DNA of 64,000 nt, from positions 1,088 to 65,087 of the forward strand of contig DATHDE010000201.1 in the NCBI GenBank assembly GCA_035490495.1, given 5' to 3'. Made by a program: the position numbers and the translations under genes. Shown one piece after another: positions 396 through 18,953 of this stretch; position 1 is the stretch's first letter; each line of letters starts with the position of its first letter. Below the pieces are notes generated by a model, which ran no database searches, was not told where the DNA came from, and was given only the letters and a program-made list of their open reading frames with translations. The stretch comes from Nitrospirota bacterium (GTDB lineage: Bacteria > Nitrospirota > UBA9217).

Positions 396-1748
396 TCATC
401 CGCTCGTGATCCCGAGCTTTTTCATCTTCCGCCAGAGCGTGCTCGTATCAATACCGAGGTCCTTCGCGGTCCTGATCCGGTGATTGTTGTTGCGGGAAAG
501 TGCCTGCCGGATAAGTGCGGACTCCGTGGCGTCCGTTCGGTTGCGCAGCGAGGTATCCTCGCGTGCAGGCCGGTCCGGCGCAGCGTCCCGCAGTTCCCGG
601 GGCAAATGTTCGATGCCCAGCTTCCTGCCGCGGCACATGACGAACGCGTGTTCCAGGAGGTTTTCGAGTTCTCGTATATTTCCGGGGAAATCGTAGGTCA
701 TGAAGAACCTGAGCAGATCGTCCGAAATGCCCGTGACGTTCTTGCCGTGCGAGGCGGCAAACTTCCCGATAAAGTGTTCCACGAGGAAGGGGATATCCTC
801 CTTCCGGTGCCGCAGCGGCGGCAACGTGAGCTTCACGATGTTAAGCCGGTAGTACAGGTCTTTGCGGAATACCCTTCTGTCAACCATTTCCGCGAGGTCC
901 TGGTTCGTTGCAGCGATGATCCGTACATCGGCTTTCACGGAGCTGGTCGCGCCCAGCGGTTCAAATTCCTTTTCCTGCAGCACGCGAAGAAGTTTAACCT
1001 GGACGGCAAGGGGGATATCACTTACTTCGTCGAGAAACATCGTGCCTCCCGCAGCGATTGCGAAGCGGCCCGGCTTGTCGCGTTTTGCGTCTGTAAACGC
1101 TCCCCGCTTGTATCCGAAGAGCTCCGACTCCAGCAGACTGTCGGGAAGCGCTCCACCGTTCACCGCCACAAAAGGCTCTTTTCTCCTCGCGCTCAGGTTG
1201 TGAATGGCGCGGGCAAACAGCTCCTTCCCTGTGCCGCTTTCCCCCTGAATCAGGACCGTGCTGTCACTGCCGGCAATATCCGGCATGATGTCGAAGATGA
1301 GGCGTAGTGCACGGCTTTTTCCTATGATGTCCTCGAATGAGTAGCGCCGGCTGATTTCCTTCTTCAGAGCCTCCAGGGCGGAAAGATCGCGGAATGTTTC
1401 TACCCCGCCGATGATATTGCGTTTTTCATCTTTCAAGACCGCGGTGCTGATGGACACCGGAATTTTTCTTCCCTCGCGGTTTAAAATGTTTACGGACTGA
1501 TCGATGATCTCCCTGCCGGTCCGGAGCGTTTTTCCCAGGGCGCACGCAGACTGGCAGATGTCCGCATGAAGGATATCAAAGCACTTCTGTCCCACGGCGC
1601 GCAGCGCCGGAATCCCGGTAATCCTCTCGGCTGCCCGGTTAAAGGATGTGATGTTCCAGTCATTGTCCACGGTGAAAACGCCGTCTGCGATGCTGTCGAG
1701 GATAACACGGGTGGCAACGGTATGCGTTATTTTGCGGGGATCAGTCAT
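396..1748 (-). CDS. Sigma54-dependent transcriptional activator (PAS + AAA+ + Fis-type HTH), NtrC family
   Basis: 450 aa. PAS-like N-terminus (SIADGVFTVDNDWNITSFNRAAERITG), Walker A GESGTGKE, GAFTDA loop (a GAFTGA variant) and a C-terminal HTH (RTAKDLGIDTSTLWRKMKKLGI). Confidence 0.9.
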   Translation of the reverse strand: MTDPRKITHTVATRVILDSIADGVFTVDNDWNITSFNRAAERITGIPALRAVGQKCFDILHADICQSACALGKTLRTGREIIDQSVNILNREGRKIPVSISTAVLKDEKRNIIGGVETFRDLSALEALKKEISRRYSFEDIIGKSRALRLIFDIMPDIAGSDSTVLIQGESGTGKELFARAIHNLSARRKEPFVAVNGGALPDSLLESELFGYKRGAFTDAKRDKPGRFAIAAGGTMFLDEVSDIPLAVQVKLLRVLQEKEFEPLGATSSVKADVRIIAATNQDLAEMVDRRVFRKDLYYRLNIVKLTLPPLRHRKEDIPFLVEHFIGKFAASHGKNVTGISDDLLRFFMTYDFPGNIRELENLLEHAFVMCRGRKLGIEHLPRELRDAAPDRPAREDTSLRNRTDATESALIRQALSRNNNHRIRTAKDLGIDTSTLWRKMKKLGITSG

Positions 1749-1951: not shown

Positions 1952-2623
1952 TCATTCGGCCGTCGGGGTGTCCATTTTGACGATATTCTGTTTTATGGCA
2001 AACTTAACGATGTCGAATCGGGAGTGAAGTCCCAGTTTGGCGCAGATGTTTTCCTGGTGTGCCACCGCAGTCCTGACTGAAATCTTGAGCATCTCGGCGA
2101 TTTCCTTGTGGGTATAGCCTTCGGCAATCAGTTTCAGAACTTCTTTTTCCCGGTCAGTCAGCCTGTCATACGGATCTTCCGAAGGTTCTCCTTTATGGCC
2201 GAGATACCCTTCCACGATGCTTGACGCTACCGTATGGTGAAGATACATTTCTCCCGCAGCAATGGCGTGAATTGCGGTGATCAGATCCGTTGTCACCGCT
2301 TTTTTCAAAATGTATCCCGAGGCGCCGGCCTTGAGAAAACGCCTGACGTAGAGCTGGTCCTCATACTGTGTCAGTACGAGTATTTTGATGTTCGGGTCCG
2401 CTTTCTTAATCTTGATCGTTGCTTCCAGCCCGCCGAGTTTCGGCATGGCGATGTCCATAAGGATAACGTCCGGTTTGAGCCGCTCCGCAGCCTCAATTGC
2501 CTCTCCACCGTCGGCAGCTTCGCCGACAACTTCGAAGTCGTCGCAAATCCTTAAAAAAGCCGCAAGTCCCGCCCGCACGAGCGTATGGTCGTCGGCGATC
2601 AGTATCCTGATTTTTTTTGTCAT
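1952..2623 (-). CDS. NarL/LuxR-family response regulator (REC + LuxR HTH), paralog 1
   Basis: 223 aa. REC motifs (ILIADDH, DVILMDIAMPKLGG) and a LuxR-type HTH (LTDREKEVLKLIAEGYTHKEIAEMLKISVRTAVAH). The start abuts the kinase stop. Confidence 0.9.
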   Translation of the reverse strand: MTKKIRILIADDHTLVRAGLAAFLRICDDFEVVGEAADGGEAIEAAERLKPDVILMDIAMPKLGGLEATIKIKKADPNIKILVLTQYEDQLYVRRFLKAGASGYILKKAVTTDLITAIHAIAAGEMYLHHTVASSIVEGYLGHKGEPSEDPYDRLTDREKEVLKLIAEGYTHKEIAEMLKISVRTAVAHQENICAKLGLHSRFDIVKFAIKQNIVKMDTPTAE

Positions 2624-4429
2624 TTAGGCCTCGTTCAGGGGTACTTTGAGAAATACTGACGTTCCTGTCCCCGGCGACGAGCATACCGTCAGCTGACCCT
2701 TCAGCAATGCCGCACGCTCTTTCATGCCGAGAATGCCCAGTCCCCTGCCGCTCGTTGTGTCGTTCAGCACGGTCTTTGTATCGAACCCATCCCCGTCGTC
2801 CTCGATGCTCATCGTAAAATATTTACCGTCGTCCTTCATAAAGACAAATACCTGGTGCGCATTTGAATGCCGGGCAATATTTGTCGTGGCCTCCTGCACG
2901 AGCCGGAACAGCGTTATCTGAAAATCCGGCGCTAAATACCGGTCAGAGAGTTCTTTCATGTTCAGATGGCATTTGATGCCCCTGGTCTTAAGGTTCCGGT
3001 CGAGGATCCAGACAATCGAAGCTTCGAAGCCCAGATCGTCGAGAACCGTCGGCCGGAGATTTTGTATAAGATTGTTCGTCTCATTGATGATCTTTGTAAT
3101 GTGATCATAGAGTTCGGATATCTTCTTCGGCGAGATCATGTCCGGTCTGATCTTGCAGACGCCGATTTCCATCAGGACCGCTGAAAGCGCCTGAAGCGAC
3201 TCGTCGTGCAGTTCTCGTGCGATCCTCTTGCGTTCATCCTCCTGTGTCGTGATGACTTTTTTCAGCAGCGTCTGGATGGCAAGCTGCTTTTCTTCAATGA
3301 GCTTGGTGCGGTCATAAACGCGTTGTTCCAGGTCCTCGCTGTACTGCTGAATGCTCTTGAGCGACATGGCCAGTTTTGCCCGCGTATCGTCGAAGCTTTT
3401 CGCAAGCGTGCCGATCTCATCCTTGCTTCGTATCGCCACGGGTTCCGAAAGATCGCCCCGCCCGATGCGCTCCGTCGCCCGGATCAGTTCCTGGACCGGT
3501 TTCACGATCCTCCTGCTCATGCCCAGTGCCAGCAGAAAAGCAGTCGCGAGCGCGACAAAGACAAGGATGATGAAATCTTTTTCCAGCTGCGCCGTGGAAA
3601 CGAGAACGCTTTTTTCGGGTTCCTTCCGCGCAACGACCCATGCGGCGTTCGACAGCGGAGCCAGTGCAATAATGTCATTTGTCTTTCCATCCGGTTTTGG
3701 CTGCCCCTCGTGGCACCGATGACACGTGCCGATGAAACTTTTCCTGCCCGCAATGGAGTTGATATATAATGCCCTGTGTTCCAGAGGCGGCTCCGCAATG
3801 CCCGCATGATTGGCTGCAATGACAACGCCGTGTTCGTCGATAAGCTCGATCTCGATGTCCTTCTCGCGCGGGCTGGTCGTAATCAACTGGGCGATCCGCA
3901 GGCTGGCCGGATTGATGATCCCCCCTGCAGCACCGACGATTTCCCCAAAGCGGCCCTTCAACGGGACAACGACAAAGAGGACCCGTTTTTTTACGGGAGC
4001 CAGCGTAAATACGTTCGAGACCATCGGCTTCATTTCGTGGATGGCCCTGCTGACGGCAGGCACGTTCATCAGATTCACCATACCGCTTGCCTGATACGGA
4101 TAGATCTGGACGATGCTTCCCTGTTTGTCCAGAAGAAATACTCCATCCGAAAAAACTGAATATTGGTAGGCGACTTTAAGCGCTTCCCGCTCCGGGGCAT
4201 CATTCCTGTCCTTAAAATCGATTTTCCCGGAGAGGGAGATATCATACAGGCGCGCAAGATTGTTTTGAAGAAGATTGTCAATGTTTCCTGCAATCACTTC
4301 CGCTGCGGCAAGCCGTTCTTCATAAGCCTTTTTGACGCTGTCCCGTATGCGCAGATAATTGATAAATCCGAGACAAACCACGAGGATGAGGTTGCATGCG
4401 AAGATGGTTGTAAAAATTCTTTTTAACAT
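2624..4429 (-). CDS. Sensor histidine kinase (periplasmic Cache-like domain, HAMP, HisKA_3, HATPase_c), paralog 1
   Basis: I placed the start at the internal ATG (MLKRIFTTIFACNLILV, a TM helix); the ORF track extends to 4660. H-box RIARELHDESLQ, G-box GRGLGILGMKERA. The periplasmic domain contains CHRCH at nt 3710-3724. Confidence 0.85.
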   Translation of the reverse strand: MLKRIFTTIFACNLILVVCLGFINYLRIRDSVKKAYEERLAAAEVIAGNIDNLLQNNLARLYDISLSGKIDFKDRNDAPEREALKVAYQYSVFSDGVFLLDKQGSIVQIYPYQASGMVNLMNVPAVSRAIHEMKPMVSNVFTLAPVKKRVLFVVVPLKGRFGEIVGAAGGIINPASLRIAQLITTSPREKDIEIELIDEHGVVIAANHAGIAEPPLEHRALYINSIAGRKSFIGTCHRCHEGQPKPDGKTNDIIALAPLSNAAWVVARKEPEKSVLVSTAQLEKDFIILVFVALATAFLLALGMSRRIVKPVQELIRATERIGRGDLSEPVAIRSKDEIGTLAKSFDDTRAKLAMSLKSIQQYSEDLEQRVYDRTKLIEEKQLAIQTLLKKVITTQEDERKRIARELHDESLQALSAVLMEIGVCKIRPDMISPKKISELYDHITKIINETNNLIQNLRPTVLDDLGFEASIVWILDRNLKTRGIKCHLNMKELSDRYLAPDFQITLFRLVQEATTNIARHSNAHQVFVFMKDDGKYFTMSIEDDGDGFDTKTVLNDTTSGRGLGILGMKERAALLKGQLTVCSSPGTGTSVFLKVPLNEA

Positions 4430-4695
4430 ACGGCATCGTGCGCTGCACACGGGAAGGGATACGACCGGATGTCCCGGATGAGACCAGGGATGCGCCGAAC
4501 ATACGTACAGGACACTCGCCCCTAGTATAGCACAATCTCGGCAGGATCCTTTTTTCGTGCCGGATGCCTTCGGCCGCTCTTCGCCCATGATGAGGAACAG
4601 GCATGAATAGACAAGGCAGGGCGTTTTCCCGCTGCTGCCGTGAGGGAAAACGCCGAACATGCGGTTAGCGAGTCGTCGAGGCCGTTCGACGAACG

Positions 4696-5476: not shown

Positions 5477-6937
5477 CTAGCGCAACATCGTATAGCGCCA
5501 TACGTGCAGAAGCATCTGCAGGACAAGTCCTACGAGCATGAACGGGATGAGAATGTGGTAGATCAGTTTGATGATGAATACGAGCGGCGCGTTTTTCAGG
5601 CTCGGCTCGTAATGGGAGAGCCAGGCATCGGGGAACGACTCGGTGGCTCCCGCATGACATTGCCGGCATTGTTTCACGAGCCGCGCCTTGACCAGATTCG
5701 TGCCCGGGCCCTTTGTGCTGGTGATGTCATGCACGCCGTGACAATCGATGCACGTGGCAAGGGCTTTTCTCATTGCGACTGCTGCCGCGCCCCGTTTGTC
5801 CTTCTGCTGGCGGTAGAGCGTGATGGTAAGGCCGTGGAAGTCGTCCAGATAGGAATTGACCACGCCGGGATAGAGCCCGTATTTTTTCATGAGCGTTTTA
5901 TTGGCGTGGCACTGGCCGCAGATATCGGGGACCTTCTCGCGGTAGTCCATGGTACGGGGATCCTGGATGGCATGCGCGGAATGGCAGTCGATGCAGACAG
6001 GGACGTCCGTATTGTGTTCGTTGACCAGCGCCTTGCCGTGAATGCTTGACGCATAGGTAGCATACACCGCGCCATGGCATTTTTTGCAGGTGTGCGCCGT
6101 CTGCGTTTTATCCGTCTGGACCGGGGAGACGAGGTGACTGCCGTGGCAGTCGGTGCATACAGGCGCTTTGAGATTCCCCTGGCTCAGCATGGAATAGTGG
6201 ATGCTGTCGAGGGATTTCGAATACTTGTCGAAATGACAGCGCCTGCACGCGTCGGCATTCGCCAGGGAGAGTTCGCGTGCACTGCGGAATTCGCGCTTCG
6301 GGTGTTCTGCGGAAGAGAAGCCGAAATGGCAGTCAAAGCAACTGAGCTTTCCGTGCACCGATGCATCAAGACCGGCGCTGTCCACCCTGAGCGAAACGGG
6401 TTCGCTGTTCATCATCACAGCGGTCAGTGCATGTTCATGGCATCCGAGACAGTAGCGTCTTTCGCCTGCAACGGTTTTCCCTCCTGCGATGGGAGTAACC
6501 GAGTGGGCATTGTGGCATCTCGTACAAACGGGCGCACTGCTCTCTTTGGTAAGCACTGCGGCATGTATGGGCTTGGCCTTCAGCGAATCAGCTGAATGGC
6601 ACCGGCGGCACATCACCGCGGCCCGCAGCGCATACTGCTCCCGTGAAACAAAAACCTTTCCCTGCCCGCCCTGGTGGTTGTCCGCCGTGTAATCGGTGTG
6701 GCAGGCTGAGCAGCCAAGGGGGGCGTGCACGGACGCCTTGAATGCCGTGGCGTTGACGTATGCTTCCAGGGTCTCGTTCGTTCGCAATGATACGCTCAGC
6801 CCCTTCTGCCCGTGACACGACAGGCACGAGAGCGATTCTTCGGATAATTCCCCTGCCGGTGCGTTCGTACCTGAGCCCGGGAAAAAGCTCAAACACCAGA
6901 GCAGGGCTGCTCCCCATCGTATGATTTTTTGTATCAT
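5477..6937 (-). CDS. Multiheme c-type cytochrome (13 CXXCH), C-terminal membrane anchor, paralog 1
   Basis: Start taken at MIQKIIRWGAALLWCLSFF (signal-like). I counted 13 CXXCH motifs. C-terminal hydrophobic helix (LIYHILIPFMLVGLVLQMLL). Confidence 0.85.
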   Translation of the reverse strand: MIQKIIRWGAALLWCLSFFPGSGTNAPAGELSEESLSCLSCHGQKGLSVSLRTNETLEAYVNATAFKASVHAPLGCSACHTDYTADNHQGGQGKVFVSREQYALRAAVMCRRCHSADSLKAKPIHAAVLTKESSAPVCTRCHNAHSVTPIAGGKTVAGERRYCLGCHEHALTAVMMNSEPVSLRVDSAGLDASVHGKLSCFDCHFGFSSAEHPKREFRSARELSLANADACRRCHFDKYSKSLDSIHYSMLSQGNLKAPVCTDCHGSHLVSPVQTDKTQTAHTCKKCHGAVYATYASSIHGKALVNEHNTDVPVCIDCHSAHAIQDPRTMDYREKVPDICGQCHANKTLMKKYGLYPGVVNSYLDDFHGLTITLYRQQKDKRGAAAVAMRKALATCIDCHGVHDITSTKGPGTNLVKARLVKQCRQCHAGATESFPDAWLSHYEPSLKNAPLVFIIKLIYHILIPFMLVGLVLQMLLHVWRYTMLR

Positions 6938-7051
6938 GTTCGTTTCTCCCGCAGTACTGCACCGTGACTCTGCTGCGATGTAGGCGCAGGAAGGTGCGGT
7001 CAGAAGCACGCCTTCATACACTCCGCCATTCGAACGCAATCGCCTTCCTGC

Positions 7052-10026: not shown

Positions 10027-10225
10027 GGCAGAACAACAAAAGTAGTATTTTTTTTCTTCTTTTGTCCCTCCTCATCTTTTTTTCATTCAGAACATTTACC
10101 CCCGTTATCTAAGAGTTAATGCCGATGGAGTTAGGAAGTTCTGCTGATATACAAAAAAATGACTGTTTGATAAGGTTACTTAACGCAAGTAAGGAAGGCA
10201 TTTGAACGAAAGGAGGCATCACGAC

Positions 10226-10591
10226 ATGTTTACGCTATCAGGTGGACAGAAAGCTGCTGAGGGAACCTACTGGGACATCAGCTCGGGACAGCGGATCGAC
10301 ATGGATCAGGAAGGCGTCTTGCCGGGAGATCAGAACGCAAAATATATTAAAGCATCACCCGGACTGATATTGGTGACCGGCCCCTTTCTCGGCCTCATCT
10401 ACATCATTGCCCTTCCAATCATGGGTGTTGTTACAGCAATGTCACTCATCGTTCAGAAAGTATTGAGCGTCATCTCCCATCTTGTCCGGAATATGGTCTC
10501 CTTCGGATGGAGACCGTCGGAGTCGTATCTTTCGGGAAGTAATAGAAAAAAGGACGACCCGGGACGCAAAGATTCGTCCGGAAGGCATTAA
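10226..10591 (+). CDS. Small membrane protein, FGWRP-motif family (copy 2)
   Basis: ATG at 10226 lies 9 nt after AGGAGG; the ORF track starts at a TTG at 10202. Contains GTYWDISSGQRIDMDQEGVLPGD, a TM region, SFGWRP and a basic tail. Confidence 0.6.
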   Translation: MFTLSGGQKAAEGTYWDISSGQRIDMDQEGVLPGDQNAKYIKASPGLILVTGPFLGLIYIIALPIMGVVTAMSLIVQKVLSVISHLVRNMVSFGWRPSESYLSGSNRKKDDPGRKDSSGRH

Positions 10592-10644
10592 TATAAACTT
10601 TCCCTGCGGCAGACCGCGGGGTATGCAAGTGAATCCTCATCCCT

Positions 10645-10671
10645 CCCCTTCTCCCTCAAGGGGGAGAGGGG
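10645..10671 (+). other. GC-rich hairpin downstream of FGWRP copy 2 (no U-tract)
   Basis: CCCC(T)TCTCCC / GGGAGAGGGG: a 10-bp stem with one bulge and a 6-nt loop. Confidence 0.35.
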
Positions 10672-10895
10672 TAGCAGCGACTCCGCTGCACGCGACGGGA
10701 TATCTTACAATCGAATGAATACAGGAAGCCGGGTGTTCGCAAAAACTGTCTTTCGAACGGATGGCGGTCACGATTGAAATCCGCGCTGAGAAGCCTGACG
10801 TGGTCGGGGATTCCGGCATCCATCATAAGCAATCCATCTGGTAAAAACACGACGTCCCTCCGGGGGATAAATAACAGAGAAAGGAGGACCGCTGT

Positions 10896-11294
10896 ATGCA
10901 CACGATGTTTGATTTTACAACTCACGTAAAGGGAGTTGAATATCTTCTGTCTCTCGCCCTGATTGCCGGATATCTGATCGTCTGGGAGGCGCTCAAACCC
11001 AGCCCGTTCCGCGCAATCAAAGAGACGAGCAGGGATGACCTGGCGCATCTGAAGCTGGCCGGCATGCCGGGCACCATGAAACAGATCGGCCGCATTGTTT
11101 CCGCCCCATTCGTCGGCGTGTTCTATATCTTCATGCTTCCTTTCACCCTGGTCGGCGCGATCGCCTACGCCGCATACACAGCGATGGCGGGCAAAGGAGA
11201 AGCCTTCTCCTGGAGACCAGCCGAGGCATATCTTGCGGGTCGGAAGAAGACCAAGAAAAACGATGCGGCCGGAACCGCATCGGAGAAGAAATAA
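10896..11294 (+). CDS. Small membrane protein, divergent FSWRP-motif relative (copy 3)
   Basis: 132 aa. AGGAGG lies 8 nt upstream. Two TM helices and a C-terminal AFSWRPAEAYLAGRKKTKK resembling copies 1 and 2. Confidence 0.55.
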   Translation: MHTMFDFTTHVKGVEYLLSLALIAGYLIVWEALKPSPFRAIKETSRDDLAHLKLAGMPGTMKQIGRIVSAPFVGVFYIFMLPFTLVGAIAYAAYTAMAGKGEAFSWRPAEAYLAGRKKTKKNDAAGTASEKK

Positions 11295-11304
11295 CCTGCA
11301 GCCA

Positions 11305-11341
11305 GGGGAGAAGCGCGAAGGACGGGAGAGCGCTTCTCCCC
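11305..11341 (+). other. Perfect 12-bp intercistronic hairpin before the cytochrome gene
   Basis: GGGGAGAAGCGC-13 nt-GCGCTTCTCCCC, followed by TGATTGCAACC (a poor U-tract), then GAGGAGG and the ATG at 11370. Confidence 0.4.
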
Positions 11342-11369
11342 TGATTGCAACCGAGGAGGATTAAGCAGA

Positions 11370-11843
11370 ATGAAAATCTTGGCAGCCTCATTCATAGCCT
11401 GGTGCTGCATGCTGCTGTTCACGGCCGCCGGACATGCAGCCGACAATACGCCGCGGGGGATCATCAAGCTGGACAGCATTGCCAAGTTCTACCTGCCGGT
11501 TCGTTTCGACCACGCCAAGCACGCAGCCATTGCCGGCGACTGCGGCAAATGCCATCACCAGCACGGCAACAGCGCGAGCCTCCCCTGCCGCGAATGTCAT
11601 AATCTCACGGTATCGACGTTCAAGGGATCGAAAAAAGCGTCATTCATGGCGTGCAAAAACTGCCACGGCGCCTCCGATCCTGCGGCCCCGGGAATGCCCG
11701 GGCTCAAGGTTGCGTACCACCGTCAGTGTTTTCAATGCCACCGCGGCATGGGGGGAGTTGGAGAAAACCCCCAAGGCTGTACACAGATCTGCCATGGGAA
11801 GAACGATCAGCAGGCAAAGCGCGGAACGAAGTCCGCTCAATAA
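11370..11843 (+). CDS. Periplasmic c3-like multiheme cytochrome c (4 CXXCH + 1 CX3CH)
   Basis: 157 aa. Signal peptide MKILAASFIAWCCMLLFTAAGHA. Heme motifs CGKCH, CRECH, CKNCH, CFQCH and CTQICH. Confidence 0.8.
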   Translation: MKILAASFIAWCCMLLFTAAGHAADNTPRGIIKLDSIAKFYLPVRFDHAKHAAIAGDCGKCHHQHGNSASLPCRECHNLTVSTFKGSKKASFMACKNCHGASDPAAPGMPGLKVAYHRQCFQCHRGMGGVGENPQGCTQICHGKNDQQAKRGTKSAQ

Positions 11844-11888
11844 TGCATGTTGCACCGTGCTATCTGGACTGAGGAGGAATAATCCAAT

Positions 11889-12878
11889 ATGGAGAAGAAC
11901 GATAGCAAGCCCCAGGAGCCCGGACAGACGAAACCGGACTTCGACGAACCGGGCGACAGTTTAAACTTCACAAGAAGAAGGTTCATGGGGACGATGGCCG
12001 CAATCGGCGGCGCCGTCCTTGCATCGAAGTCAACAAATGCTGACGCAAAGGAGTTCGAGGGCTCGAAAGACCGGTATGGAGTATTATACGATCTGTCGAT
12101 GTGCGTCGGGTGCCGCAGCTGTGAAAAGGCCTGCAACGAGGAAAACAAGCTGGGAGCGCCGAGCAAGCCTTTTGATGATCCTTCCGTGTTCGAGGAGCAG
12201 CGCCGCCCCATGGTCAATGCCTACACCGTGGTGAACCGCTATGCGAATCCCAAGGACCCGTCGCAGCCGCTCTTCCGCAAGATTCAGTGCAATCATTGCA
12301 ACGAACCTGCCTGTGCCACGGCCTGCCCCGTCCACGCCTACACCAAGAATCCGGAAGGGCCGGTCACGTACGATGTGAGCCTCTGCTTCGGATGCAGGTA
12401 CTGCATGACCGCGTGCCCCTACTACGTTCCTGCGTACGACTACAACAGCGCCCTCGAACCGCGCATCTCGAAATGCACGATGTGCTATCATCGGGTGAAG
12501 GAAGGCAAGCCCACGGCATGCTCCGAGATCTGCCCCACAGGCGCCCTCACCTTCGGGAAACGGGAGGACTTGATTAAACTCGCACGAGAGCGTATGATGA
12601 AAAACCCCGGCAAGTACGTGGAACATATCTTCGGCGAACATGAGGCAGGGGGATCGAGCTGGCTGTACATCTCCAGCGTCCCCTTCGAGACCTACGGATT
12701 TCCGACGGACATTCAGAAAGCGCCGCTGCTCGAAAATACCAAGGGGTTCCTCGCAAGCGTTCCGCTTGTATTCACGATCTGGCCGGCGCTGTTCGGCATG
12801 CTCTATTCCGCGACCAAGCATCGTGACAGCTCCGACGAGGGGAGCGGAGATCACGGGAAACAGGAGGATAAAAAATGA
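11889..12878 (+). CDS. Tat-exported 4x[4Fe-4S] ferredoxin-like subunit (HybA/NrfC/PsrB-type)
   Basis: 329 aa. Twin-arginine signal (TRRRFMGTMAAIGGAVLA) and four Cys clusters (CVGCRSCEKAC, CNHCNEPACATACP, CFGCRYCMTACP, CTMC...CSEICP). C-terminal hydrophobic helix. Confidence 0.85.
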   Translation: MEKNDSKPQEPGQTKPDFDEPGDSLNFTRRRFMGTMAAIGGAVLASKSTNADAKEFEGSKDRYGVLYDLSMCVGCRSCEKACNEENKLGAPSKPFDDPSVFEEQRRPMVNAYTVVNRYANPKDPSQPLFRKIQCNHCNEPACATACPVHAYTKNPEGPVTYDVSLCFGCRYCMTACPYYVPAYDYNSALEPRISKCTMCYHRVKEGKPTACSEICPTGALTFGKREDLIKLARERMMKNPGKYVEHIFGEHEAGGSSWLYISSVPFETYGFPTDIQKAPLLENTKGFLASVPLVFTIWPALFGMLYSATKHRDSSDEGSGDHGKQEDKK

Positions 12879-14116
12879 GCAACGACAGCATGGCCAAATC
12901 GGATAACTTCCGGTACGGCTTTCTCGAGAAACTGCGGATGGGCATGTCCTGGGAGGAATACCGGCGGAGCCTCCTGACACCGTTCAATATCATTGCTGCC
13001 ATCATCCTGAGCATCGGCCTGCCCCTGATCGTGCTGCGCTTCGTCAAGGGTCTCGCCTATGTAACACACGCATCAAATGAATATCCCTGGGGCCTGTTCC
13101 TCGGCTGGGGGCTGTTCGGCGGTGTGCCGCTCTCGGCCACGGGCTTTGTCATGGCCACGGCATACTATATCTTCGGTTTCAAGGCATACCACCCCCTGGT
13201 GCGTCTCAGCGTGCTGACGGGCCTTTTGGGGTACTTCTTCGCCGTCATCTATCTCCTGATCGATCTGGGAAGACCCTGGCGCATCTACTTCCCGATGTTC
13301 ATCGGTTACGGCACGGCATCGGTCCTGTTCCTTGTTGCCTGGCACGTTGCGACGTACCTCACGGTCCAGATCGTCGAGTTCAGCCCGGCAATTCTTGAGT
13401 GGCTCAAATCGAGGCGCGTGCGGAGGTGGGCGCTGATGATCACGATCGGCATGACCATCTCGGGCATCATCCTGTCGACGCTTCATCAATCCGCCCTGGG
13501 CGCCATGTTCCTGCTTGCGCCCGGCAAGCTCCATCCGCTTTGGTTTTCGACGTACATCCCCGTCATGTCTCTCTGTTCGAGCGTCTATGCGGCGCTCTGC
13601 ATGATCATCGTGGTGAGCACGCTCTCAGCGCGGTATTTGCGCAACCGGGCGGACGCGACCTTCCTCGGCAACCTCGACCGGCTGACCCTGGGGCTCGGCA
13701 AGGGTGCCGTGGTCGGCATCTACGTGTACTTTGCGCTCAGGATGATCGCGATCGCGCATGACGACAACTGGGCGCTCCTTGGAACGCCGTACGGCTACTG
13801 GTACCTCGTCGAAGTGCTCGGGTTCGTGCTCCTGCCCGCGATCATCATGAGCAGCGGGGTGAAAACCGAGCGTGCAGCCTTCATCCGTTTCGGCGCTTTT
13901 CTCGGTGTCATCGGCGTCCTGTTAAACAGGATCAACGTTTCCATCGTGGCGTTCAACTGGAACCTGCCGGGGCATTTGCACCACATCATTCCGCCGTGGC
14001 GGGAAGTTGCAATCGTAGCCGCGGTCGCAACACTGCATATCCTTGTCTTCCGGTGGATCGTAAACCGCATGCCGGTCATTCGGGAGGATGAGACTTATCA
14101 CGAACTGCACTCATAA
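12875..14116 (+). CDS. NrfD/PsrC/HybB-family polytopic membrane quinone-interacting subunit
   Basis: 413 aa with about 10 TM helices. ATGA start/stop overlap with the FeS gene. Family assigned from context and topology. Confidence 0.7.
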   Translation: MSNDSMAKSDNFRYGFLEKLRMGMSWEEYRRSLLTPFNIIAAIILSIGLPLIVLRFVKGLAYVTHASNEYPWGLFLGWGLFGGVPLSATGFVMATAYYIFGFKAYHPLVRLSVLTGLLGYFFAVIYLLIDLGRPWRIYFPMFIGYGTASVLFLVAWHVATYLTVQIVEFSPAILEWLKSRRVRRWALMITIGMTISGIILSTLHQSALGAMFLLAPGKLHPLWFSTYIPVMSLCSSVYAALCMIIVVSTLSARYLRNRADATFLGNLDRLTLGLGKGAVVGIYVYFALRMIAIAHDDNWALLGTPYGYWYLVEVLGFVLLPAIIMSSGVKTERAAFIRFGAFLGVIGVLLNRINVSIVAFNWNLPGHLHHIIPPWREVAIVAAVATLHILVFRWIVNRMPVIREDETYHELHS

Positions 14117-14188
14117 AGGCAACGGTGCGGGTGCGATGGACCGGATCGCGCCCGCGCCACGATCCTCGATCAGCGTGAAGGTGCCGCG

Positions 14189-15634
14189 ATGAATGTTAAG
14201 AATGTCATATTCCTGTGCGCGCTCCTGCCGCTTTTGAGCATGCTCCTGCCGCTTCCGGGCGGTGCTGCTGCCGAAACGATATCCAATCAAAACGATGCCT
14301 GCCTCGCCTGCCATGCGAAGCAGGATATCGTCATTTCGTTCCAGAACAACGAATCGCTGTCGGGTCATGTCGATGTTGAAAAGCTGAAAGCCTCGGCCCA
14401 CGGTGAGCTGGCCTGCTCTGCCTGCCACATCGAATTCGCCTCCGCTCAGCATCCGAAAAGAATTTTCAGGAGCCGCGAACAGTTCACGGTACGGGCGTCG
14501 CTCGTCTGCAGGCGCTGTCACAGCGACGAACAGCTGAAGGCACGGCCGGTCCACGTCGAACTGCTCGAACGCCAGAAAGCCGGCGCTCCCGCTGTCTGCG
14601 CTGACTGCCATGGCGCGCATTCGGTCATTCGAGTCACCCGGAGAAAGTCACTCAACGACGACGCGAAAAGCTGCCTCAGTTGCCATCGACGTCCCATCCG
14701 CATCGCCTTCCAGAAAGGCGAAGCCCAGTCGTATATCGTGGATGCGACGGTCCTGGAGGGATCGGTCCACAACAAACTTTCATGCGCAGACTGCCACTAC
14801 GGGTTTTCACGGGATGAACATCCGAAGCGCCAGTTCCGTTCTCCGCGCGACATGACCATCGCTTCGGCCGAGTCCTGCCGCAGGTGCCACTTTGACAAAT
14901 ACTCAAAGTTCCAGGACAGCATCCACTACACGAAGCTGAGCCAGGGCTTTCTCAAGGCCCCGGTTTGCACGGATTGTCACGGCCATCATTCCATCTCTTC
15001 CATTTCAAAGGAGAGGATCGTCAGCGCCAACCGCTGCCGCAAGTGCCATCCCGACATATACGACACGTATGCGAAAAGCGTTCACGGCAACGCACTGGTG
15101 AATGAATTCAACCAGGACGTTCCCGTGTGCGTTGACTGTCATACGACGCATGACATACAGAATCCCCACAGCCTGGAATTCCGGGAACGCGTACCTCAGA
15201 TGTGCAGCTCGTGCCATGCAAATAAGGGGATTATGGGGAAATACGGACTGTCCACGGATGTCATGAAGACCTATCTGTCCGATTTCCACGGTGTCACGCT
15301 CGGCTTTTACATAAAGCAGAAGAATCTGCTCCCTGCGCAGGCAAAGGGGATCGCTGTCTGCACCGACTGCCATGGAACGCACAATATCACGAGCACGGTG
15401 AGCCCGGATGCTACGACCGTCAAGGCCAATCTGGTACAACGTTGCCGGAAATGCCATGCAAATGCAACGGAAAATTTCCCCGATGCGTGGATATCGCATT
15501 ACAAACCAAGTCTTAAGCGGGCGCCCCTGTTGTTTGTCATTACGATCCTGTATAAGTTCTTGACTCCCCTCATCATCTTAGGATTGGTTTTGCAGATCTT
15601 GCTGCACATCTGGCGCTATGCAGTGAGCAGGTGA
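14189..15634 (+). CDS. Multiheme c-type cytochrome (13 CXXCH), C-terminal membrane anchor, paralog 2
   Basis: 481 aa with a signal peptide, 13 CXXCH motifs and a C-terminal helix (LIILGLVLQILLHIW). Homologous along its length to 5477-6937. Confidence 0.85.
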   Translation: MNVKNVIFLCALLPLLSMLLPLPGGAAAETISNQNDACLACHAKQDIVISFQNNESLSGHVDVEKLKASAHGELACSACHIEFASAQHPKRIFRSREQFTVRASLVCRRCHSDEQLKARPVHVELLERQKAGAPAVCADCHGAHSVIRVTRRKSLNDDAKSCLSCHRRPIRIAFQKGEAQSYIVDATVLEGSVHNKLSCADCHYGFSRDEHPKRQFRSPRDMTIASAESCRRCHFDKYSKFQDSIHYTKLSQGFLKAPVCTDCHGHHSISSISKERIVSANRCRKCHPDIYDTYAKSVHGNALVNEFNQDVPVCVDCHTTHDIQNPHSLEFRERVPQMCSSCHANKGIMGKYGLSTDVMKTYLSDFHGVTLGFYIKQKNLLPAQAKGIAVCTDCHGTHNITSTVSPDATTVKANLVQRCRKCHANATENFPDAWISHYKPSLKRAPLLFVITILYKFLTPLIILGLVLQILLHIWRYAVSR

Positions 15635-15645
15635 AGGAGATGCAC

Positions 15646-16377
15646 ATGGCAAAACCACTGGATGAACACGATAGAATCAAATTCAGGCGCTTCGGTCCGT
15701 ACCGGATCATCGAACACTGGCTCCATGCGGTTATATTCTGCCTCCTCGTTGTCACCGGGCTCGCACAGAAGTACCATGCCTATGATTTTTCCCAGTGGAT
15801 TGTCTATCGCCTGGGCGGCATCGATTCAGCGCGTCTCACCCACCGCATTGCAGGCTTCCTTCTTATCATTCTCGTTGTAGAACACATCGCTATAGCGGTG
15901 TTCGGCATCGCCAAGCGGCGCTGGCAGGCATCCATGCTGATTCAGATCAAGGACTACCGGGATGTCATCACGAACCTCAAGTATTATTTCGGCGTCAAGA
16001 ACCATCCGGCCGCATGCGACCGCTTCGACTACAAGCAGAAATTCGACTACTGGGGGGTGCTCGTCAGCAATACCGTCATGATCGTCACCGGCATTGTGCT
16101 CATGTTTCCTATTGTCACGACAAAATTCCTGTACGGCGAGATCGTGCCTGCAGCGAACGTGATCCATACGAACCAGTCCCTGCTCATCATTCTCGTTATT
16201 GCGATCTGGCACATTTACAATTCCATTTTCAGCCCTGAAATATTCCCGCTCGACACCAGCATTCTGAGCGGCTATATCTCCCGGGAACGTATGCAGCATG
16301 AACATCCGCTGGAACTGGAGCGACGCGAACGTGAGGAGCGCAAGGCACTGAGGGCAGCGCGCCAGAAACACGACTGA
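15646..16377 (+). CDS. b-type cytochrome membrane subunit (FdnI/HydC family), paralog 2
   Basis: ATG lies 6 nt after AAGGAG; the ORF track starts at a GTG at 15631, overlapping the upstream stop. Strong similarity to 4696-5457 (e.g. IWHIYNSIFSPEIFPLDT vs TWHIYNAIFSPEVFPLDT). Confidence 0.75.
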   Translation: MAKPLDEHDRIKFRRFGPYRIIEHWLHAVIFCLLVVTGLAQKYHAYDFSQWIVYRLGGIDSARLTHRIAGFLLIILVVEHIAIAVFGIAKRRWQASMLIQIKDYRDVITNLKYYFGVKNHPAACDRFDYKQKFDYWGVLVSNTVMIVTGIVLMFPIVTTKFLYGEIVPAANVIHTNQSLLIILVIAIWHIYNSIFSPEIFPLDTSILSGYISRERMQHEHPLELERREREERKALRAARQKHD

Positions 16378-16480
16378 CTTTCGTGCTGCCCGGCTTCCCC
16401 GCCCTGTTCGTGCTTTTCAAACACTCGCCGATGGGGTATACTGAATAGGTTGCGACGTCTGATCAGAACACCGGCCCTTC

Positions 16481-18322
16481 ATGCAAAAAAAGCTCATCAT
16501 CGCCCTTATTCTCTATGTCGTGGTCATTTCCATCGGTCTCGGCATCGTGAGCACGATTGCGGTACAGGATGTCATCGAACGGTCCCTTCAAAAGAGCCTT
16601 ACGTCAGCGAACACGATCGCAAACCAGCTCGATTTTCTCCTGCAGACGAACATCAGCAGGCTCTACGACATATCCCTCTCCGGCAAAGTTGACTTTCGGG
16701 AACGCAACTGGGCGCCCGCGCGCCGTTTGATCGAATCCATTTACCAGTATTCAATTTTCACCGAAGGCGTCTTCCTGCTCGACAAGCACGGCAATACACT
16801 CATGTCGTACCCCGCGCGCGATTACAACCGTGAGAACCTGCTGTTTATCCCCTGGGTGAGCCGGGTCCTTTCCGAAGGAAGGCCGATCATTTCGAATGTC
16901 TACACGATCGAACCTATCAAAAAGCCCCTCATCTTCGTGCTTGTCCCTCTTCGCAATACGTCAGGCGATATCGTCGGCGCAGCCGGCGGCGCCATCAACC
17001 CCACGAACTCTGTCATGAGTCGCATTCTCCGCGGGGTGAAGGCGGACACAGGCAACTATTATCTCGAGATCATCGACTCCAACGAAGTAGTGGTCGCCTC
17101 GGACAAGAACAGCCGCATCCTGACGCACCATGACCACGACGGCTCTCTGGGTAAAATGATCAAGGACGGTGCGTCGGGCATCAGGAACTGCGGCCACGGA
17201 TTTTCCCACGATACGCCCGACAACAAAACGCAGGACATGCTGGCCATCGTGCCTCTCCAATCGGTGTCCTGGGCCGTGGTGTTCGGCCAGGCAAAGGATG
17301 AAATCTATCTTCCCGCCCAGCACTTGAAGTATCACTTTTTGCTCATTGCCCTTATATTCATCGGAACAGCGCTCATCTTCTCACTCGGCATCAGCCGCAA
17401 CATCGTAAGCCCCATCCGGTCTCTCATCTCCGCCGCGTACCGCATCGGCCAGGGCAATCTCAACGAACCTGTGGGGAATGTGGGCAGCGATGAAATAGCG
17501 GCTCTGGGCCGCAGTGTCGATGCCATGCGCGAACGGCTCGCCAAATCCCTCGAAAGCATCCAGCGTTACAATGCCGAACTTGAGGAGCGCGTGCTGCATC
17601 GGACCCGTGAACTCGAGGAGAAACAGCAGGCGAACGCATCGCTGCTGAAAAAACTGATCACCTCGCAGGAAGACGAGCGCAAAAGAATCGCCCGGGAGCT
17701 CCATGATGAGTCCCTCCAGACGCTTTCCGCAATCCTGATGAATATCGAGATGTGCAGGCTGCATCCTGATCTGATCAATGTCGATCGGGTTACGATCATC
17801 CGGGACACGGTCAGCCGGGTCATCAACGAGATGCAGAAAGTCGTGCAGAATCTGCGGCCGACGGTCCTCGACGACCTCGGATTCGAAGCTGCGGTTGTCT
17901 GGCTTGTGGACAATAACCTCCGCAACAAGGGCATTCACTGCCATTTGAACATCTTCGAACTGGCGGAGGAGCAGCTCGGCCCGGAGTTGCAGATTACGCT
18001 GTTTCGAGTGATCCAGGAAATGACGACGAATATCGCGCGCCATGCTGGCGCCAGGAATGCTTCCCTCTACATGAAAACCGATAACCAGACGTTCACACTT
18101 CTTATCGAGGATGACGGGTCGGGTTTCGATACCAAGACGGTGTTCGGCAGCCTGCAAAGCGGGCGAGGTCTGGGTCTCCTCGGCATGAGGGAGCGCGTGG
18201 CTCAGGTAAACGGAAGCCTGGATATCTGCTCCGCACCGGGTGAAGGTACCATTGTGCGCTGCACTGTCCCGATTTCACAGGAGAATGCATATGGGGATAA
18301 AAACACGGATCGTAATAGCTGA
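16481..18322 (+). CDS. Sensor histidine kinase (Cache-like, HAMP, HisKA_3, HATPase_c), paralog 2
   Basis: 613 aa. H-box RIARELHDESLQ, G-box GRGLGLLGMRERV. The position equivalent to CHRCH in paralog 1 reads CGHGFSH. Confidence 0.85.
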   Translation: MQKKLIIALILYVVVISIGLGIVSTIAVQDVIERSLQKSLTSANTIANQLDFLLQTNISRLYDISLSGKVDFRERNWAPARRLIESIYQYSIFTEGVFLLDKHGNTLMSYPARDYNRENLLFIPWVSRVLSEGRPIISNVYTIEPIKKPLIFVLVPLRNTSGDIVGAAGGAINPTNSVMSRILRGVKADTGNYYLEIIDSNEVVVASDKNSRILTHHDHDGSLGKMIKDGASGIRNCGHGFSHDTPDNKTQDMLAIVPLQSVSWAVVFGQAKDEIYLPAQHLKYHFLLIALIFIGTALIFSLGISRNIVSPIRSLISAAYRIGQGNLNEPVGNVGSDEIAALGRSVDAMRERLAKSLESIQRYNAELEERVLHRTRELEEKQQANASLLKKLITSQEDERKRIARELHDESLQTLSAILMNIEMCRLHPDLINVDRVTIIRDTVSRVINEMQKVVQNLRPTVLDDLGFEAAVVWLVDNNLRNKGIHCHLNIFELAEEQLGPELQITLFRVIQEMTTNIARHAGARNASLYMKTDNQTFTLLIEDDGSGFDTKTVFGSLQSGRGLGLLGMRERVAQVNGSLDICSAPGEGTIVRCTVPISQENAYGDKNTDRNS

Positions 18323-18953
18323 CGACCATGCGCTTGTACGCCAGGGCATTGTTGCTTTTCTGAAGATGACCGATACGTATGAAGTCGTTGCCGAGGCTTC
18401 GGACGGGGTGGAAGCCATCGAAGCGGTCAATAAATGGAAGCCCGACATCGTCATCATGGACATTTCCATGCCGAAGCTGGGGGGTCTGGAAGCGACCGTG
18501 GAAATTAAGAAAAACTTTCCGTCGGTGAAGATCCTCGTACTGACGCAGTACGAGGATATGATGTACATCCGCCGTTTTTTCAAGGCGGGAGCCTCGGGGT
18601 ATCTCGTCAAGAAGGCGGTTGGCGTGGATTTGCTCACGGCCCTGGAGGCCATCATGTCAGGTAAAATGTATGTCCACCCATCCATTGCAACATGCGTCGT
18701 CGACGGATATCTCGGTATCAACAAGGGCGAACCCGCCGAGGATCCCTATGACACGCTGACGGATCGTGAAAAGCAGGTGTTGAAACTCATCGCGGAGGGA
18801 TATACACAGAAGGAAACTGCAGACATCCTGGCAATCAGCACAAAAACAGTCATCACTCATCAGACGAATCTGAGCGAAAAGCTGAACATCCGCACACGCG
18901 CAGGCCTGATCAAGTTCGCGATACAGAAAGGAATCATCAAGATCGATTCGTAA
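18291..18953 (+). CDS. NarL/LuxR-family response regulator, paralog 2
   Basis: Start taken at MGIKTRIVIADDH, 7 nt after AGGAG, giving a 32-nt overlap with the kinase. REC plus LuxR HTH (LTDREKQVLKLIAEGYTQKETADILAISTKTVITH). Confidence 0.9.
   Translation: MGIKTRIVIADDHALVRQGIVAFLKMTDTYEVVAEASDGVEAIEAVNKWKPDIVIMDISMPKLGGLEATVEIKKNFPSVKILVLTQYEDMMYIRRFFKAGASGYLVKKAVGVDLLTALEAIMSGKMYVHPSIATCVVDGYLGINKGEPAEDPYDTLTDREKQVLKLIAEGYTQKETADILAISTKTVITHQTNLSEKLNIRTRAGLIKFAIQKGIIKIDS

Follow-up and report, generated by a model that had tools for sequence, protein, structure and literature searches.

The kinase gene and its motif

The 64,000-nucleotide stretch analysed here (the window; contig DATHDE010000201.1 of assembly GCA_035490495.1, from a Nitrospirota bacterium) encodes a membrane-bound histidine kinase, HK1, whose sensor domain contains a CXXCH motif and is probably a covalent haem c sensor. 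The HK1 gene occupies 2624..4429 on the minus strand and encodes 601 residues. Based on its translation, Pfam searches and homologues of the same length, the protein consists of a first transmembrane helix (TM1), a dCache_1-like sensor, a second transmembrane helix (TM2), HAMP (residues 304-353), HisKA_3 (399-463) and HATPase_c (505-599). The motif, CHRCH (C236-H237-R238-C239-H240), lies at 3710..3724 on the minus strand and is the putative attachment site for haem c, with H240 as the putative proximal ligand. An earlier note on this DNA had placed it at these nucleotides; reading of the minus strand from 3724 to 3710 (tgt cat cgg tgc cac) and its translation confirmed this position, and the motif stands in the context FIGTCHRCHEGQPKPDGKTNDIIALAPL. 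C236 and C239 are the only two Cys residues between the membrane helices (residues 24-285). When this stretch was shuffled, CXXCH arose in 36 of 200,000 trials; a chance origin is ruled out because the motif is conserved in homologues, as described below.

The open frame of HK1 reaches 4660, upstream of the ATG at 4429. This ATG is the likely start, since homologues of 599-606 residues align from residue 1. The 77 codons by which the frame extends further upstream (window 4430-4660, minus strand) are without homologue support.

TM1 (residues 5-23; 4361..4417, minus strand) is a signal anchor that follows the N-terminal MLKR, with a peak of 2.51 in a 19-residue Kyte-Doolittle window, and it is helical in the AlphaFold2 (AF2) model. 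TM2 (residues 286-304; 3518..3574, minus strand) has a hydropathy peak of 2.78 and continues into HAMP, which starts at residue 304. Flanked by these elements, residues 24-285 are assigned to the extracytoplasmic side, in agreement with the periplasmic location proposed in the earlier note. CHRCH is therefore predicted to face the side where cytochrome c maturation systems act. These systems recognise an exported CXXCH, and in an organism whose maturation system is active such a motif will normally receive haem. The genome from which the window derives encodes ResB (324.6 bits) and an adjacent CcsA-like protein on contig C266, which together constitute System II cytochrome c maturation, and Pfam searches showed numerous multihaem cytochromes in the window itself.

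Fold of the sensor domain

The AF2 model of HK1 was built on a 104-sequence alignment and has a mean pLDDT (predicted local distance difference test score) of 82.6. In it, a long stalk helix (2-66) is followed by a PAS-like module distal to the membrane (~78-172) and then by a proximal one (~185-275), which leads into TM2. The Cache-like domain suggested earlier thus models as an extracytoplasmic double Cache (residues 24-285; 3575..4360, minus strand), an assignment based on AF2, Foldseek and profile searches. The membrane-proximal module (residues 185-275; 3605..3877, minus strand) contains, in order, strands 193-198 and 203-206, a helix at 216-228, a strand at 232-237, CHRCH with a low-confidence loop at 240-248, and strands 251-258 and 264-271. 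CHRCH is placed at the end of strand 232-237 and the start of the following loop, that is, in the connection between beta3 and beta4. Residues 240-248, just after the motif, are the sole low-confidence segment of at least three residues in the model, as would be expected where a segment needs a cofactor. In the alignment, relatives lacking the motif are shorter at this connection by approximately four residues.

Foldseek searches of the PDB with the HK1 sensor returned the dCache domains of Mlp24, PctA, mmHK1S-Z3, KinD and Tlp3 (TMt ~0.6-0.76), and those with the kinase core returned DesK. A sensor-only profile built from 22 distant members matched KinD (6e-11) and PctA/B/C, with E-values from 6e-11 to 1e-6. 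The KinD and PctA matches all end by profile position 204, short of the motif region, and none of the solved dCache structures aligns to the profile over the motif-bearing part of the proximal module. Pfam dCache_1 (PF02743) is matched by HK2, a paralogue of HK1 in the window, by nearly all close homologues and by 56 of 66 distant members, and no NCBIfam model covers the sensor part of HK1. The profile match, together with a model in which two PAS-like modules sit on a long N-terminal helix, identifies the HK1 sensor as a double Cache of the dCache_1 type.

Conservation of the motif

The CXXCH on which the earlier note built its proposal is kept in nearly all close homologues and in most distant ones. 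Searching with the HK1 sensor region yielded 120 close homologues (37-66% identity), whose source names suggest Nitrospirota/Thermodesulfovibrionales. CXXCH is found at the same place in 119 of these, nearly always as CHRCH. The sole exception, P0114 (611 residues), has CHRCK at residue 236. Such a Lys-for-His variant of CXXCH is known from the active-site haem of NrfA. All 103 homologues in an alignment have C236, H237 and C239, and 102 of them have R238; the count for H240 is likewise 102.

Further evidence came from an exhaustive HMMER search of 1.84 billion representatives at 50% identity, which gave 440 matches at E <= 0.001, 150 of them listed. The 127 listed representatives of at least 340 residues were aligned with HK1 and HK2 (129 sequences). 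Of the 129, 92 have C..C[H/K] at the homologous column, in almost every case in the form C-H-x-C-H; their identity to HK1 is 23-40%. When 66 distant members were aligned, no sensor column other than G201, C236, C239 and H240 proved invariant, while H218 and H237 are each at least 90% conserved. These distant members are kinases with dCache_1, HAMP, (GAF), HisKA_3 and HATPase domains; those with a source name come from Chloroflexota/Dehalococcoidia metagenome-assembled genomes and carry generic protein names only. Within its own phylum the HK1 family is present in 47 of 201 sampled genomes, mostly in single copy. In pairwise alignments, the 29 relatives that matched best among the other phylum genomes all proved to have CXXCH (27 CHxCH, two CYSCH). 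Overall, His occupies the first X position in ~96% of motif-bearing proteins.

Other residues of the proximal module were considered as parts of a haem pocket. H218 (3776..3778, minus strand), part of a D-H motif with which the helix of the proximal module begins, is a candidate distal ligand, an assignment that is uncertain. It is conserved in 95% of motif-bearing representatives and 81% of motif-less ones, and 14 of the 29 phylum relatives described above have Arg or Tyr in its place. Kept where the motif is missing and replaced in many motif-bearers, H218 was downgraded as a universal distal ligand. The columns linked to the motif were found to be D217 and R/K269. Column 269 is Arg in 75% of motif-bearing relatives as opposed to 9% of motif-less ones, and K269 of HK1 (3623..3625, minus strand) is a candidate partner for a haem propionate. 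The co-variation of D217 and R/K269 with the motif suggests a co-evolving pocket, as would suit a bound haem with a partner for its propionate.

Loss of the motif in a paralogous kinase

HK2 (16481..18322, plus strand; 613 residues) has the same architecture as HK1, with 45% identity over the full length. Where HK1 has CHRCH, HK2 has CGHGF; the aligned segment reads NCGHGFSH, and the absence of CXXCH stated in the earlier note was upheld. A maximum-likelihood tree of 84 sensor regions separates into two halves, one containing HK1 and the Nitrospirota-named homologues and the other containing representatives whose named members are Chloroflexota. Motif-bearers predominate in both halves, on either side of the deepest split. 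The tree requires at least 5-7 changes of motif state, for which the best reading is several losses of an ancestral motif. In the motif-less clades C239 and H240 were lost together.

HK2 belongs to a clade of six motif-less proteins (support 100) nested within the HK1 half. At the former haem-motif site this clade has the signature C-[GSDR]-H-G-[FYLH]-S-[HQR] (or similar), in which C236 and a nearby His are retained. Bearers of an HK2-type signature are HK2 itself (window 16481-18322, plus strand, residues ~236-243), L078, L079, P0122, P0135, P0145 and P0148. In two sampled genomes of the phylum the HK2-type motif-less kinase is the only copy. Because it lies in a supported, conserved motif-less clade nested among motif-bearers of the HK1 half, HK2 is read from the tree as a derived and conserved type with secondary loss of the motif, not as a decayed copy. 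The conserved signature suggests a different conserved function (a metal?) rather than simple decay, and given the clade to which HK2 belongs, the earlier idea that it uses a different input is plausible.

Genomic context

HK1 is followed by a NarL/LuxR-type response regulator (1952..2623, minus strand; Pfam Response_reg and GerE), the start of which adjoins the HK1 stop. Together they form a two-component pair of the HisKA_3/NarL type, as indicated by Pfam and by the DesK-type fold of the kinase core. Directly downstream of the regulator lies a gene for a PAS, sigma-54 activator and Fis-type helix-turn-helix protein (window 396-1748, minus strand), and homologues of this activator are near the cassette in two of 20 sampled relatives (L061, L074). 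Directly upstream of HK1 is an FdnI/HydC-like cytochrome b (Ni_hydr_CYTB, PF01292; 4696..5526, minus strand, open-frame bounds with an uncertain start), which gave an NCBIfam match to a formate dehydrogenase gamma-like model below the cut-off. The 266-nt spacer between the stop of the cytochrome b gene (4696) and the HK1 ATG (4429) could hold a separate promoter for kinase and regulator. Upstream of the cytochrome b is a multihaem cytochrome c (5477..7039, minus strand, open-frame bounds; Pfam Cytochrome_C7, Paired_CXXCH_1 and Cytochrom_c3_2) with 13 CXXCH motifs, none of which has His at the first X. The membrane-anchored multihaem cytochrome c and the FdnI-like cytochrome b resemble a quinol:cytochrome module of the CbcL/CbcBA kind.

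Each of the two kinases, HK1 and HK2, is preceded in the window by its own copy of a paralogous cytochrome pair (multihaem c and FdnI-like b) and is followed by a gene for a NarL-type regulator. All three homologues that were looked up (41-55% identity) have these genes in identical order, from the multihaem cytochrome c through the cytochrome b and the kinase to the regulator. Searches of 20 sampled phylum genomes with the window proteins (tblastn) recovered this order in 19, and the regulator follows the kinase in all 20. An iron-sulfur (FeS) protein and NrfD pair immediately precedes the cytochrome c in 13 of these 20 loci (L060-L079) and in 11 of the 18 motif-bearing ones. In the window, the arrangement of FeS, NrfD, multihaem c, cytochrome b, kinase and regulator (10202-18953) belongs to the motif-less HK2, and HK1 stands in an arm without FeS and NrfD, near an M56-type peptidase. 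In Chloroflexota, three of four examined loci have c-type cytochromes together with cytochrome b or NrfD beside the kinase; at the fourth the kinase is beside Hdr/Mvh-like genes instead. The earlier note had set HK1 next to cytochromes that it probably controls. The linkage to cytochromes c and b proved to be conserved, and their control by HK1 still has to be read from gene order.

Proposed function and alternatives

On this evidence HK1 is likely to be a covalent haem c sensor, with the haem in the proximal dCache module, tied to a quinol:multihaem-cytochrome module. System II (ResB/CcsA) would attach haem to C236 and C239 of the membrane-proximal module, and H240 would coordinate the iron on the proximal side. 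The oxidation state of the haem, or a small ligand at its distal face, would alter the proximal module, and the change would pass through TM2 and HAMP to the kinase core and lead to phosphorylation of the adjacent NarL-type regulator. H218, or the near-invariant H237 from the partner subunit, could serve as the distal ligand. Since the kinase nearly always follows a cytochrome c/b module, the likeliest signal would be the redox poise of the extracytoplasmic electron-transfer chain or of its acceptor.

Several observations weigh against this proposal. In the AF2 model, which was made without haem, C236 is at the end of a beta-strand rather than in the usual helical turn. HK1 itself has no match to PF02743 at E <= 0.1, and the conservation analysis of motif-bearing relatives revealed no consistent distal ligand. 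The near-invariant His at the first X is atypical of CXXCH and could suggest a metal site. We infer the attachment of haem, the distal ligand, the signal and the regulon of HK1, and likewise haem binding by the family; control of the neighbouring cytochromes is deduced from synteny only, and a gap of 266 nt separates HK1 from the cytochrome b gene.

The main rival explanation takes CHxCH as a Cys/His metal site (Zn, Cu, Ni, Fe) or as a CXXC thiol/disulfide switch, so that the kinase would sense periplasmic metal or thiol redox state. Haem motifs tolerate almost any pair of residues between the two Cys, and a His so nearly fixed at the first of these positions is unusual for them; the lack of a clear distal haem ligand also fits a metal or thiol site. 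Nevertheless, the His after the second Cys is invariant, its only variant being Lys, the NrfA-type alternative, and adjacent Cys-His pairs would give a poor geometry for a four-ligand metal site. An exported CXXCH in a genome with a cytochrome c maturation system, the joint loss of C239 and H240, and the persistent linkage to cytochrome genes also argue for haem, and we regard a metal or thiol site as improbable. Still further down the scale stands a cofactor-free structural motif, in a kinase that would sense an ordinary ligand bound by its membrane-distal Cache module. The distal residues R60, D63, S65, Y90, S91 and F93 are invariant in close homologues and shared with the motif-less HK2, and most characterised dCache domains bind their ligands distally. 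A distal ligand site and a proximal haem would be compatible with each other, however, and exact invariance of C..CH across 23-66% identity, together with coordinated loss in derived clades, is hard to explain for a merely structural element, which makes this explanation very improbable.

A different question is what a haem-bearing HK1 would sense. It could bind haem c and respond to a gas or small ligand (NO, CO, O2, sulfide, nitrite) instead of reporting redox poise. Signalling members of sCache_heme, the only characterised haem-c Cache family, act as NO sensors, and the absence of a universally conserved distal ligand fits an open or weakly ligated distal site. However, the close and ancient linkage of the kinase to the genes of a quinol:multihaem cytochrome module suits redox coupling better, and Pfam and NCBIfam searches recognised no NO-, nitrite- or sulfide-specific enzyme in the cassette. 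Gas or small-ligand sensing is therefore considered rather unlikely. A broader scheme, here called dCache_heme, extends the redox proposal: HK1 and its relatives would represent a second, independent origin of covalent haem c sensors in the Cache superfamily, the haem would exchange electrons directly with the co-encoded oxidoreductase, and the module would thereby report its own redox load to the NarL-type regulator, and the His at the first X of C-H-x-C-H would act either as a gate or as a distal ligand reaching over from the other subunit of the dimer. This scheme is tentative, and we hold it to be possible, if somewhat doubtful.

No class of bacterial extracellular sensors is larger than the Cache domains, which for a long time were regarded as free of cofactors. 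The HK1 locus appears to mark a separate and sizeable family of probable haem-based sensors for which no description was found in the literature: 92 of the 150 listed representatives at 50% identity bear the motif, and the family has a large Chloroflexota branch. Being nearly always linked to quinol:multihaem-cytochrome modules, it is a concrete and testable candidate for the device with which anaerobes would measure redox potential outside the cytoplasm and select one respiratory branch over another. The presence of motif-bearing and motif-less paralogues in one genome provides a natural experimental control.

Comparison with known systems

The gene layout of the HK1 cassette recalls the inner-membrane quinol:cytochrome oxidoreductases CbcBA and CbcL (bc type) of Geobacter, in which a cytochrome b and multihaem cytochrome c pair likewise stands beside a dedicated response regulator. 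CbcBA, a bc-type cytochrome, is induced as the redox potential falls, via the adjacent response regulator BccR. BccR is a sigma-54 activator for which the cited paper names no sensor, whereas the HK1 cassette has a NarL-type regulator and a kinase with a haem motif; the likeness to CbcBA is one of gene layout. PcrS of perchlorate reducers was also checked as a precedent and was found to be unrelated.

Literature searches for a haem-bearing dCache found no description, and the only haem-c Cache family that they returned was sCache_heme (PF11845, DUF3365/Tll0287-like). Two preprints introduce it as the first Cache domain to have a covalently bound cofactor and place its CXXCH in a segment inserted between strands beta3 and beta4 (Deshpande et al., 2026; preprints, doi 10.64898/2026.02.01.703092 and 10.64898/2026.05.25.727664). 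Its members include GSU0582 and GSU0935 of Geobacter sulfurreducens, Tll0287 of Thermosynechococcus and the CHH receptor of P. azotoformans, and those of the signalling type act as NO sensors (Deshpande et al., 2026). The HK1 sensor shares with sCache_heme an extracytoplasmic Cache fold and a single CXXCH between beta3 and beta4, and sCache_heme is often fused through a transmembrane helix and HAMP to signalling outputs. Unlike the single Cache of sCache_heme, HK1 has two PAS-like modules on a long stalk helix, and its best structural matches are dCache domains. Where sCache_heme has an inserted short helix, the AF2 model of HK1 shows a loop of low confidence. The motif signatures differ as well, with C-H-x-C-H in the HK1 family as opposed to CQSCH in GSU0582 and CAACH in an sCache_heme gene of the same genome as HK1. 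Moreover, Chloroflexota have many members of the HK1 family, whereas sCache_heme is reported to be rare or absent there.

Membership of HK1 in sCache_heme was rejected on the basis of PF11845, hhalign, the fold and profile searches, and the motif signature. PF11845 gave no match to HK1 at E <= 0.1, and a six-frame search of its own genome with this model (E <= 0.01) detected three other loci, HK1 not among them. These loci are C142:5717-6214, C191:17966-18451 and C167:4974-5438 (L011-L013). When the HK1 family was compared with an own-genome PF11845 gene by hhalign, only 18 residues around the motif aligned, with a probability of 9%, and no sCache_heme structure was among the fold or profile matches of HK1. 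With both PF11845 proteins and HK1 in its genome, the organism would have two unrelated kinds of Cache sensor with a haem motif. The Geobacter haem sensors invoked in the earlier note as a precedent belong to a different, single-Cache family (PF11845), of which HK1 is not a member.

By fold and by homologous sequence, the nearest known relatives of the HK1 sensor are instead the dCache_1 (PF02743) domains of KinD (B. subtilis), PctA/B/C (P. aeruginosa), Mlp24 (V. cholerae) and mmHK1S-Z3; no covalently bound cofactor is known in any of them. The shared topological position of the motif in HK1 and sCache_heme suggests a parallel solution, in which an ordinary double-Cache domain would have gained a haem-attachment motif between beta3 and beta4, at the place equivalent to that used by sCache_heme.

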